A DNA stretch of 64,000 bases from Octopus vulgaris (taxonomy: Eukaryota): positions 83,452,001 to 83,516,000 of the forward strand of contig OX597817.1 of NCBI GenBank assembly GCA_951406725.2, in the 5' to 3' direction. The notes beneath the pieces are model-generated. The model saw nothing but the letters and a program-made list of their open reading frames with translations, made no database searches and had not been told where the DNA came from. The position numbers and the translations under genes are program-made. Shown here piece by piece: positions 707 through 44,594 of the stretch; positions within the stretch are counted from its first letter, which is position 1, and every line of letters starts with the position of its first letter.

Positions 707-761
<55 letters not shown>

Positions 762-932
762 AATATTAGGGAATAAATCCAAATTTACAGGGAAAAAATC
801 AGATTTAAGATTAAATCCACTTTTATAGTAAAATATTATAAAATATTATTAGAGACAAAACCACTATTTTGCAAAACAAACAAGGAAAGACTTAATCAAT
901 ACATAAAATTTTAATAAATAGTCAAAAAACCG

Positions 933-975
933 CCACTACAATCGTTTCTTGTCTTGATCGACAATCTTCAGGTGG
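933..975 (-). ncRNA. Minimal type-I hammerhead ribozyme (canonical core)
   Basis: Reverse complement of 3160-3202: CCAC-CUGAAGA-UUGUC gaucaa GACAA-GAAA-C gauu GUA-GUGG. Confidence 0.85.
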
Positions 976-3159
976 ACTTCAATCTAAAATATCAATATTT
1001 TAAAATATACAAATAATAATTTTAAAATAATTTAAGTATGAGTTTAGTTTAAATTAGTTTAGATAATATATTTTGGTTATGTTGTCTAGGATTTAATTAT
1101 AGTTAGTCTTTATTGATATTTCTTTGTTTTAATTAGTTCATTTTTAATGTATATTATTTTAACAGTATATGGTATGTTAAAACTTTAATAATTTATATTA
1201 GATTTTTTTATTTTCTTTATTTATATATTTTTTTATTTTTTTATTTTTTATTTTTTTTATTTTATTTTATTATGTATTTTTATTATGCATTTGTTATATG
1301 TATTTTGGAGGATATTGATACGTATGTATATGAGTGTGTATTGGGGGGTTGTACGTATTTATTGTATGCATGTGCTTCACGCACGTGCGTCCATGTATGG
1401 ATGAATATATTGGGATTGCTATGTGGGTGTAAATTGGGTATGGAGGGGGGAGTTTTGTCATTGTATGGGTGTGGGTTTCATATGTGATGGTGGTTAGTTG
1501 GTAATTTTTGGTATGTTCTGTATATTTGGGTTAGTTATGTATTATTCTAGTGTGTATAATTGTATACATATGATTGGTGTGAGTGGGATTACGCCCATTT
1601 TTGGGGATGTATGTGTTTATTTATCCATATGGGGCGGGAGTGGCCGTTAGGTGTATATGTTGAGGCTCACATGCAATTCCAGGTACAGCGAATGAAGTGG
1701 GCACTCATATTTGTTATGGGTGTGTGTACTTTATTATAACAGACAATACCCAAATAAAATCTGTCAATTCAACATACCAAATAAAAAACAAAAAACAAAG
1801 GGATCATAAACATTCACACATACATACGTTTTTAAGAGTTTTGGTTTATCATGGTTTTTTTAGGGAATTCGTGGTAATTTGTCTATTTTCGATGTTGGTT
1901 GTCTTATTGCATTGTTTCATTCATAATTTTTGAGTGGTGTTCGTTTTGCCACGTGAATATTATTTTTAATTCCATTTATTCCATTTCTCCATTCATTAAT
2001 TTAGTGATGTTCGTTTCCAGAGCGGTTATACTTTTTATACATATGTTAAGTTCCTTGGTAAAGTAATTTTGTTTGGTGTATATGTTGAGGCTTATATGTA
2101 CTTGTGGGTGTGTGTGAGTGGGGTGGGTGTTTGTATTTGTTATGGGTGTGTGGTTTACGTGTGTGTTTTTGTGTGTGAATGTATAGGTTAAAGGGATTGC
2201 TATATAAGTATGTTATAGTGTTTAGTAAAGGGAGGTTTTATCATTTCTGTTTTGTGAGTTTTAGCTTATCATGGTAGTTTTATAAAAGAATCCATTCATA
2301 ATTTTTGTGTTTATTTGTCTGTGTGGGGTTGAGTGGGTTTTTGGAGTATATGTTGAGGTTTATATGTATGTATTGGTATGTGTAAGTGGTGTGGGTATTT
2401 GTATATGTCGTGGGTGTGTGGTTTACGTGTGTGTATTTGTGTGTGAATGTTTAGGTTAGGGGGATTGCTATATAGGTATGTTATAGAGTTTAGTAAAGGG
2501 AGATTTTAACATTATATGTTTTTGTGAGTTTTGGTTTATCATGGTAGGTTTGTTAAGGAATTCGTAGTAATTTGTGTATATTTGCGATGTCTGTTGTTTT
2601 ATTGCATTGTTTCATTCATAATTTTTAAGTAGTGTTCGTTTTACCAAGTGAATATAATTTTTAATTCCATTTATTCCATTTCTCCGTTCATAATTTTGAG
2701 TGATGTCCGTTTTCTAGAGCGTGAATGTGGGTTGTATGTGTGTGTGTGTGGGAGTATGAATAAGTATTGTGTTGAAGTATTTAGCTATTTTATTTATTTA
2801 TAGTTGCCTAGACGTTTTTATGTGTATGTATAGGGATATATATTTAGGTGTGTGGTTTAGTGTATGTAGTTAGATATGGTTATATATAATTAGGTATATG
2901 TGTATGGGTGTATATATAGTTTATTATTATATTATTATTATTTTTTTACTTTTTTGTTTTGTTTTATATTTTATATTTTATATTTTATATTTAATTGTTG
3001 ATAGGTTTATTTTAGTTTATATATTGTTTATATATTGATTATATATGGATTATATATAGGTTATATATGGATTATATATTTATATTTTTTCATTCATACT
3101 TTAATTATTTTAAAATTATTATTTGTATATTTTAAAATATTGATATTTTAGATTGAAGT

Positions 3160-3202
3160 CCACCTGAAGATTGTCGATCAAGACAAGAAACGATTGTAGT
3201 GG
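3160..3202 (+). ncRNA. Minimal type-I hammerhead ribozyme (canonical core)
   Basis: Stem I CCAC(3160-63)/GTGG(3199-3202); core CTGAAGA 3164-70; stem II TTGTC/GACAA; GAAA 3187-90; 2-bp stem III; GUA triplet 3196-98. Confidence 0.85.
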
Positions 3203-3289
3203 CGGTTTTTTTGACTATTTATTAAAATTTTATGTATTGATTAAGTCTTTCCTTGTTTGTTTTGCAAAATAGTGGTTTTGTCTCTAATA

Positions 3290-3322
<33 letters not shown>

Positions 3323-3326
<4 letters not shown>

Positions 3327-15611: not shown

Positions 15612-15816
15612 CTGTGTATAACACACACACACATATACGCACGCACGCACGCACACACGTATACACACACACATATTTCTATAGAGTGAGCGAAAGAGGG
15701 ACAACAATATAGATAGACGGATATATTCATACACAAATATAAATTAATTAATCTTATGTATTGGCTTATGTTTTTCATTGTATGATTTGCCTAATAGTGG
15801 TTTTATCTCTAATTTA

Positions 15817-15854
<38 letters not shown>

Positions 15855-15856
<2 letters not shown>

Positions 15857-16402
15857 AGAAATACTAAATTTCTAAATCTCTCGTAGAGACATGTACGGTG
15901 GTGGGGCGATAGCATGGTTGTATACTTACTGTCAATCTAAAATGAACGTGATAGTAGGGGGGGTACACCCCCGCTGTTTAGCCCTAGGAAACATCGATAG
16001 AATGGTTGTATACTGTCAATCTAACATGAACGTGACAGTAGGGGGGAGGGTACATGTCTCTATGAGAGATTTAGAAATTTGGTATTTCTGATTTTGATAA
16101 TCAGTGAATAAACTTCACTGAAGTTAGATATATATACATTACGAGTCGAGGCAGATATCAACAGCTGACCGGCGTCTGCTAGTCTAGACCGACGAAGGAC
16201 AATGATCCTGAAACACGCGTGTCTCTAGATGCAGCCCTGGCGGCTGGGGGTATTTGTCTCCCCTTCGTAAATGTATATAAGGACACAGGAAAAATGTGTC
16301 AAAGTCATCAGGAGATGTCGATGCTTCCTAGGGCTAAACAGTGGGGGTGTACCCCGCCTACTGTCACGTTCATGTTAGATTGACAGTATACAACCATTCT
16401 AT
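15855..16402 (+). mobile_element. Retrozyme-like HHR unit (16050-16402) with 5' inverted and duplicated segments, in (TA)n
   Basis: Segment X 15855-15896 is inverted at 16050-16091. Segment Y occurs at 15909-15997, 15997-16053 and inverted at 16318-16402. HHR at 16183-16229. Same family at 44375-44580. Confidence 0.75.
16183..16229 (+). ncRNA. Type-I hammerhead ribozyme, U4C core variant (CCGACGA)
   Basis: TCTAGA-CCGACGA-AGGA caatga TCCT-GAAA-CACGCGT-GTC-TCTAGA. 6-bp stem I, 4-bp stem II, palindromic stem III ACACGCGTGT, GUC site at 16221-23. Confidence 0.85.
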
Positions 16403-38362: not shown

Positions 38363-38633
38363 TTAGAAAAATTGAGGAAAGTGCAATTGGAAACTTTATT
38401 AACTCCTCGAATTCTTTTATTTCCGTACGTGTAACGATAACTGCATTATAAAATCTTACCTCTTCTAATAGTGAAATAATTATAATTATGTGATGATAAT
38501 CATCACATAATTATAATTATTTCACTATTAGAAGAGGTAAGATTTTACAATGCAGTTATCGTTACACGTACGGAAATAAAAGAATTCGAGGAGCTAATAA
38601 AGTTTCCAATTGCACTTTCCTCAATTTTTCTAA
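38363..38633. repeat. Near-perfect 271-bp palindrome
   Basis: 135-bp arms, 1-nt spacer at 38498, two mismatches found by eye. Confidence 0.95.
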
Positions 38634-39277: not shown

Positions 39278-42658
<3,381 letters not shown>

Positions 42659-44374: not shown

Positions 44375-44580
44375 ATAGAATGGTTGTATACTGTCAACTT
44401 AACGTGACAGTAGGGGATTACACCACCGTTGTTTAGCCCTAGGAAGCGTCGATGCTTCCTAGGGCTAAACAGTGGTGGTGTAATCCCCTACTGTCATGTT
44501 AAATTGACAATATACGACCATTCTATCACCCCACCACCGTACATATCTCTATGAGATATTTAGAAATTTAATATTTCTGA
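44375..44580. mobile_element. Fold-back fragment of the 15855-16402 family, in (TA)n
   Basis: 76-bp-arm palindrome 44375-44526 with apex TCGA (44449-52); 44449-44580 is homologous to the reverse complement of 15855-15997. Confidence 0.85.
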
Positions 44581-44594
44581 TATATATATATGTA

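Follow-up and report, generated by a model that had tools for sequence, protein, structure and literature searches.

The window analyzed here is a 64-kb stretch of Octopus vulgaris DNA that contains two insertions of one short repeat family, at 15855-16402 and 44375-44581. The main copy at the first site (16050-16402, + strand) belongs to a dispersed repeat family and consists of a segment X′, a hammerhead motif, a segment Y′, and TA repeats. X′ (16050-16092) folds into two small hairpins, and its last base is a fixed end, termed end B, in other copies. Downstream, the sequence ATCAGTG (16100-16106) is the predicted proximal sequence element of a small nuclear RNA (snRNA)-type promoter and lies at −57 relative to a predicted +1 at 16157. 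LINE junctions in other copies place at 16157-16170 a stretch of ~14 nt that the LINE duplicates; the site is empty here. The region 16170-16245 carries a type I hammerhead motif with an extended stem I, a C at core position 4 (C4), a short palindromic stem III, and a predicted cut after C16223. It is followed by further hairpins and by Y′ (from 16318), which together span 16246-16401 and run to a second fixed end, end A (..CCATTCTA), and into TA repeats.

The left side of this insertion is inverted. An arm on the − strand (15855-15997) extends to end B with the order Y′, 12-nt linker, X′, and thus carries a tail of ~55 nt; it is 89% (Y′) and 95% (X′) identical to the main arm and stops at reference position 40 before (TA)n. 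A short inverted piece of Y′ (15997-16046, − strand), 98% identical to 16353-16402, stops at end A and is joined to the B arm through a short microhomology jump, presumably a template switch. Next to the left arm lies 15743-15853 (+), the end remnant of another repeat resembling a Penelope-like element (PLE), 84% identical to the end of an element at 758-3323, with the TA array (15817-15853) in which the left arm ends. The second insertion, with (TA)n on either side, combines an inverted arm stopping at end A (44375-44452, − strand) with an arm to end B that has the order Y′-linker-X′ and no hammerhead (44449-44581, + strand). The layout of the unit in an initial annotation was reproduced at every coordinate, and the two Y′-linker-X′ junctions that it described, at 44449-44581 (+) and 15855-15997 (−), are both present.

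Other repeats share the window. The element at 758-3323 resembles a PLE and is bounded by (TA)n runs; its ends are inverted relative to each other (924-1041 and 3094-3211, 99% identity), a single end is extended, and a minimal hammerhead-like motif has the core CTGAAGA at 3164. It gave no match to three PLE proteins. Positions 41531-42500 (−) hold a copy, 5′-truncated and internally deleted, of a young and presumably Hydra-like PLE. There are also long near-perfect inverted repeats at 6625-6909/7656-7940 (285 nt, 97%) and 38363-38633 (135 nt, 99%, 1-nt spacer).

Stem I of the hammerhead pairs TCTAGA at 16183-16188 with 16224-16229 over 6 bp and continues through an internal loop into further helices. 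The core CCGACGA (16189-16195) precedes a 4-bp stem II, GAAAC (16210-16214), the short self-complementary stem III, and the GTC of the cleavage site (16221-16223). A descriptor search of the window returned two hammerhead-like motifs, this one and the minimal motif at 3164 or its inverted copy. Rfam detected no hammerhead in the window or in 16100-16320, and the hammerhead call rests on the core, the stems, and covariation. The first 40 loci supplied 48 near-full copies, with a mean pairwise identity of 92%; GAAAC is present in 48/48, GTC in 46/48, and C4 in 45/48. C4 also occurs in 95 of the first 100 listed genomic hits. One type I hammerhead per ~365-nt unit and a U4C core, both proposed initially, are features of the family. 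T at core position 4 in the remaining copies would fit CpG decay. In an alignment of 12 hand-picked rows, 92.8% of cells are paired and two pairs show double changes: the basal pair of stem I, where A-U and G-C replace each other in 5 of the 12 rows, and a stem II pair with such a change in 2 of 12. As the rows are related, this is supportive only.

Stem III remains palindromic across its length variants, and dimer cofolding through this palindrome yields −55.7 kcal/mol, as against 2 × −21.0 kcal/mol for the monomers. Cofolding through stem III is typical of dimer-type type I hammerheads (PMC6155905). The natural monomer folds with z = −7.9 and leaves the core open, likewise as a circle. The U4C change lowers hammerhead activity considerably in vitro and makes cleavage slow (PMC3088659); among Xenopus retrozyme dimers, eight of nine are described as not cleaving (10.64898/2026.07.22.740005).

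A first look at the 2.8-Gb assembly gave 2,105 candidate members, of which 40 were scored and were 90 to 94% identical over approximately the full length. Exact matching located a 23-nt end motif 1,607 times and the hammerhead pattern 468 times, and the reversed control of either not once. Head-to-tail arms have a period of 360 to 366 nt, which bears out the 353 + 12 nt first assigned to the unit. The initial annotation also held that the unit closes on itself and called for a search for head-to-tail multimers. Dimers and trimers are indeed found elsewhere in the genome (L031, L032, L131, L184, and others), with seamless, in-register joints, and they establish closure; the two junctions in the window, taken alone, are explained by a Penelope-type tail. 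Units inside a single arm are 92 to 100% identical. Two units at L184 are 100% identical over 300 nt and 98.7% identical to the best other locus, whereas the third unit at L031 is 91% identical to its nearest neighbor, compared with 98% between units 1 and 2. We considered identity between units of an arm as evidence of rolling-circle copying and set it aside, since it cannot tell rolling circles from tandem donors or local duplication.

The unit has a GC content of 43%, and the longest stop-free frame in a natural 2.1-mer is 81 codons; it has no protein-coding region, as the initial annotation had it, and the ORFs inside some copies are LINE insertions. Two intact hammerhead cores within one arm, an arrangement expected of a retrozyme, occur at 2 of 76 unbiased loci and at 8 of 126 loci in all. 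The family thus includes such loci, whereas the window copy holds one hammerhead and could not itself release a unit-length circle. Part of the unit is present in 14 sequencing runs presumed to be RNA, though none is on record as such, and in five untyped runs, from seven studies with four organism labels. The assembled contigs of eight runs cover the unit unevenly, often extend into genomic flanks, and carry no information on strand, start, or circularity; they speak neither for nor against expression.

Arms were mapped at 126 loci: the first 40, chosen for full length; 76 unbiased; and 10 picked by hammerhead. The unbiased loci come from the first 100 of the 1,607 end-motif matches in genome order, after overlaps were merged and four duplicate loci dropped. 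Their 132 arm ends fall at end A (58), at end B (61), or elsewhere (13), so that 119/132 are at one of two positions, end B lying ~55 nt beyond end A (the linker plus X′). Directly in (TA)n lie 66 of these 119 ends, in agreement with the (TA)n targeting first proposed; a target-site duplication, which in retrozymes exceeds 4 bp when there is one, can be read in such sequence only against empty alleles. Among 47 head-to-head pairs at the 76 loci, both ends are canonical in 39, and all 39 combine an A arm with a B arm. Across all 126 loci, A+B accounts for 69 of 71 canonical pairs, the exceptions being one A+A and one B+B. Arms are 97.0% identical within a pair and 93.7% between loci (54 pairs); the partner arm is the single best match in just nine of the 54. 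The median arm length is 160 nt, 10 of 119 arms are longer than one period, and copies are mostly 5′-truncated and dispersed.

Neither fixed end coincides with the ribozyme cut. Arms that reach the cut site run through it in 33 of 36 cases, and in the unbiased set three of 119 5′ ends lie within 166-178, near the cut, without enrichment; a cleaved linear template is thus not visible. Three of the first 40 loci (L002, L005, L019) had hinted at 5′ ends at the cut as a sign of cleavage in vivo, which the unbiased set does not support. Passage through the cut fits circles and uncleaved RNA equally.

PLE insertions are described as having partial tandems, an inverted 5′ copy, and a 30- to 40-bp tail usually on a single end (10.1101/2021.04.23.441226). 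The PLE Poseidon nicks both strands of AT-rich DNA, after which its reverse transcriptase (RT) initiates at either of two internal sites, and these set the limits of the tail (PMC11167929). The octopus insertions have a tail on one end, an inverted 5′ arm, partial tandems, and AT-rich targets. The two fixed ends and the A+B pairing support the Penelope-like mobilization put forward initially, presumably by a PLE enzyme. They also recast what had been read as the junction of the unit, which is the tail of a B arm, a Penelope-type tail between two predicted priming sites.

Young intact PLEs reside in the genome: a family of 778 aa, presumably Hydra-like by its motifs, a Neptune-type family (781 aa), and another of Neptune type that is GC-rich. 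The first and last of these three end in (TA)n. Intact Hydra-like copies (L061-L063) have two end types ~150 nt apart, and the descriptor found no hammerhead in them. Loci L330-L337 carry a very young GC-rich Neptune-type PLE with an open frame of 1,177 to 1,214 codons, long direct pseudo-LTRs (pLTRs), and a minimal hammerhead-like motif ~120 nt before the (TA)n end. These families were sampled rather than enumerated; no sequence common to the unit and a resident PLE was found among the Hydra-like family, both Neptune families, and other GIY-YIG loci within 30 fetched of 148 listed. At none of the 126 loci does the unit frame a PLE ORF, that is, an RT and GIY-YIG between pLTRs as in an autonomous PLE. 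Flanking of a long PLE ORF by Y′ and X′, which the initial annotation had named as evidence to the contrary, was not seen at these loci; five of the 126 match PLE proteins, and only at L125 is the match contiguous with the unit. Here (L125/L329), a 5′-truncated GC-rich Neptune-type ORF continues in line from end B, the junction being mid-ORF with 3 nt of microhomology; to either side, the A arm of the unit and the Neptune end each lie in (TA)n. The fusion is ambiguous and fits either an RT jump from Neptune RNA to the unit or a later Neptune insertion beside end B. A 2.5-kb repeat at L106/L107 was considered as a PLE and proved to be a local duplication with no ORF.

Several arms break at one position, where they give way to an ORF of ~450 aa with a zinc knuckle. 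Considered as a parent gene of the unit, this ORF was recognized instead as ORF1 of a LINE, flanked on both sides by a short duplication. The LINE occurs at the site as ORF1-only elements of ~1.7 kb and as full elements in which ORF1, with CCHC, is joined by an ORF2 of 1,129 to 1,148 aa with endonuclease, RT, and zinc finger (domains Exo_endo_phos, RVT_1, zf-RVT). By these features it appears to belong to the L1/Tx1 group, and domain order and motifs place it presumably in the Tx1 clade. ORF1 has no homolog at E ≤ 0.001 among 8,000 candidates, and a named homolog of the resident LINE protein comes from Argonauta hians. The insertions are single or arrayed, have one fixed end, and show a ~14-nt duplication whose left and right copies are not always identical. 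Both young and intact, this LINE is linked physically to the unit; in the unbiased set, four loci (six sites) are interrupted by it, as against 23 intact copies of the site.

By our classification of the best 30 loci for the ORF2 C terminus, four belong to this family and 18 occupy the corresponding position of sister hammerhead repeats; four others lie at the first base of U2 snRNA genes, two in other sequence, and two are unreadable. The sister repeats are distant relatives (72-80% identity over 42-65 nt) with varying cores (TTGACGA, CTGATGA, CCGACGA). For one of them there are 2,663 candidates; its period in L317 is 352 nt, and the loci inspected show the same two-ended inverted arms. Further LINE targets (L232 at 7109 (−), L234, L235, L262) include another hammerhead-like repeat and one nonhammerhead site. 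A second group of ORF1-only derivatives forms tandem arrays of ~1.8 kb outside this unit (L226, L228, L229, L233, L216-L220), and several of its members adjoin, just downstream, TATA-like promoters of other elements. Contigs of runs X4 and X8, aligned to L032 and L161, contain the hammerhead region followed by sequence like the 3′ end of this second group, possibly a SINE-like chimera with a ribozyme head.

The LINE insertion site defines the position of the promoter motif, and the same spacing recurs in snRNA genes. We fetched 15 of 48 listed U2 loci and 12 of 42 listed U1 loci; two of the 15 U2 loci have a LINE 3′ end directly upstream of +1, and AT(C/T)AGT(G/C) lies at −57 to −61 in 25/25 uninterrupted U1 and U2 genes examined. 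Judged by its frequency in the window, such a motif would fall in a 5-nt slot by chance with a probability of ~0.001. Two sister families have the motif at a like distance (one copy with a single change). Among nontandem matches to the LINE 5′ motifs, 19 of 26 have it upstream; the other seven include mutated, truncated, and spurious matches. The unit motif agrees with the definition of a proximal element as conserved and ~60 bp upstream of +1 (PMC4494074). At the predicted start, four of 49 non-LINE 5′ ends fall in a 4-nt slot of 137, by estimate a weak and nonsignificant enrichment. On two contigs, the LINE copies found in U2 genes have 14 additional nt as a leader, which matches +1 to +14 of a sister repeat, as expected if the donor LINE copy was transcribed from the +1 of that repeat; the two may represent a single event. 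These observations suggest that the unit likely has its own internal snRNA-type promoter, with a predicted start at the equivalent of 16157. Newt satellite 2 is said to contain an snRNA-type promoter, reported by Epstein's group in the 1990s, and would provide a precedent. A 2020 review states that retrozymes do not seem to harbor promoters (PMC7761336).

The family displays the retrozyme features that could be read from its sequence. We consider it likely that the unit is a nonautonomous retrozyme with an internal snRNA-type promoter, copied by a PLE from circular or uncleaved multimeric RNA; it would work like a PLE-mobilized retrozyme and is not an autonomous PLE. Transcription would be started by the ATCAGTG promoter at the equivalent of 16157, ~67 nt upstream of the hammerhead cut. 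From the minority of loci with two-hammerhead arms, read-through RNA would yield 365-nt monomers by a cleavage that is probably slow and takes place in the dimer form, and some of the monomers would be ligated into circles. A PLE endonuclease/RT would nick both strands of an AT-rich target and prime twice inside the RNA, at end A and at B ~55 nt on, producing back-to-back arms with the tail on one of them; this two-ended footprint is directly observed. In the arms recovered, RT appears usually to stop early, yet it can pass the cut site and exceed one period. The promoter motif is situated upstream of the start and would be lost in each round of a purely linear cycle, so that rebuilding multimers would take circles or template jumps. 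Insertions of the LINE and of its ORF1-only derivatives fall at the predicted start, where these elements may be tethered and likely borrow the promoter.

The main rival retains everything but the circle. It makes the unit a linear nonautonomous PLE derivative with the same promoter and PLE insertion, a weak or vestigial C4 hammerhead, uncleaved read-through RNA as template, and multimers that arise by template jumps or local duplication. In its favor, the template of Poseidon is unprocessed RNA, and cleavage is not required in vitro (PMC11167929); the left arm of the window and the third unit of L031 show template switches; the cut site has no 5′-end peak; and C4 prevails among the first 100 genomic hits listed. 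The core, the stems, and the stem III palindrome are kept, however, across subfamilies and across sister families with other cores, and the seamless, in-register joints and the identical units of L184 likewise count against this rival; we regard the linear cycle as unlikely, if still the leading alternative.

Much less probable is that the unit is the solo pLTR of an unsampled autonomous PLE or of a longer ORF-bearing parent, its tandems being the ordinary partial tandems of that element. All insertion features are of PLE type, Xenopus retrozymes are related to pLTRs (10.64898/2026.07.22.740005), and the L125/L329 fusion joins end B to a Neptune-type ORF, but this junction is mid-ORF, with microhomology, at one of 126 loci; beyond end B the sequence otherwise stops or enters the next unit, and the ORFs that interrupt the unit are LINE insertions with their short duplication. 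We give hardly any credence to mobilization by the L1/Tx1-like LINE, despite its youth and physical association with the unit, or to spread at the DNA level as a satellite. Insertions of the unit lack poly(A) and share no 3′ end with the LINE; they stop at two fixed internal positions and form inverted twin arms within (TA)n, whereas the LINE has one fixed end and its ~14-nt duplication; and the copies are dispersed and mostly 5′-truncated. The A+B arm rule already largely refutes both.

Building on the preferred reading of a PLE-copied retrozyme, we tentatively entertain a wider model, which we hold to be possible though less probable than its basis. A clade of cephalopod retrozymes would combine an internal snRNA-type promoter with circles; a single PLE dimer would prime twice on one RNA ring, at the two fixed sites, and so insert the unit into (TA)n; and the LINE would find snRNA-type starts by position. 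If the LINE is tethered by the promoter complex and not by sequence, it would parasitize retrozymes and U2 genes alike and take over their promoter. The initial annotation missed that the junction is a PLE-type tail between two predicted priming sites, and it overlooked the snRNA-type promoter motif as well as the LINE inserting into the unit. The way in which animal retrozymes are transcribed and the enzyme that copies them back into DNA are stated as open questions (PMC7229834; PMC7761336; 10.64898/2026.07.22.740005). The family offers exact coordinates for both, with a predicted promoter and start and two predicted priming sites. The near-exceptionless rule of one arm per site also bears on the origin of PLE tails and inverted arms, and a LINE at +1 of both U2 genes and ribozyme repeats is a natural test of position-based versus sequence-based targeting.

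Compared with known systems, the octopus unit shares traits with several. We found no report in the literature searched of a cephalopod retrozyme, of this family, or of a Tx1 element that targets hammerhead repeats; the family may be catalogued in Repbase, Dfam, or the supplement of PMC7229834. Newt satellite 2 is reportedly a ~330-bp hammerhead repeat with a dimer-type ribozyme, found in a vertebrate in long arrays. The octopus unit is likewise a hammerhead repeat with a dimer-type ribozyme and an snRNA-type promoter, reported for the newt and predicted here; it has, in addition, PLE-type twin arms and a targeting LINE, of which we met no description for the newt satellite.

Target-specific Tx1-clade LINEs include Tx1L in Tx1D, Keno in U2 snRNA genes, and Tx1-Mar in Mariner-N4 (PMC4494074; PMC4640811). 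Like the octopus LINE, they have an ORF2 with AP endonuclease, RT, and zinc finger and a CCHC ORF1, occupy one site of a multicopy target, form tandem arrays, and target other mobile elements and U2 (PMC4494074; PMC4640811). The octopus LINE differs in that a single lineage has targets of several kinds, whose sequences have little in common except ATC at +1 but which offer the same position behind the promoter motif. It also enters U2 at +1, unlike Keno, which is said to insert inside U2.

PLEs, especially Poseidon of Anolis (PMC11167929) and Neptune and Naiad (10.1101/2021.04.23.441226), resemble the unit in inserting into AT-rich DNA or (TA)n, in being truncated at the 5′ end, in forming partial tandems and an inverted 5′ arm, in bearing a tail on a single end, and in having two internal RT start sites, which lie beyond a hammerhead, on its downstream side, in an AC-rich stretch. 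They differ from it in that the unit has no ORF, a tail of ~55 nt rather than 30 to 40, and a full-size rather than minimal hammerhead.

The closest likeness is to metazoan non-LTR retrozymes, which are short noncoding tandem units with one type I hammerhead each, a GC content <50%, a highly self-paired predicted RNA, and PLEs in the same genome (PMC7229834; 10.64898/2026.07.22.740005); mussel repeats measure 350 to 390 bp (PMC7229834). Circles have been demonstrated for metazoan retrozymes and are a prediction for the octopus family; no sequence link between the unit and a helper pLTR was found among the PLE families examined. The octopus family is mostly dispersed and truncated rather than arranged in long arrays, has a C4 core, and carries an snRNA-type promoter motif where retrozymes are described as apparently lacking promoters (PMC7761336). 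Its two fixed internal ends and twin inverted arms do not appear in the available parts of PMC7229834 and 10.64898/2026.07.22.740005. The retrozyme class is thus already known, and the octopus family represents a variant of it with fixed ends, a promoter motif, and a LINE that targets it.
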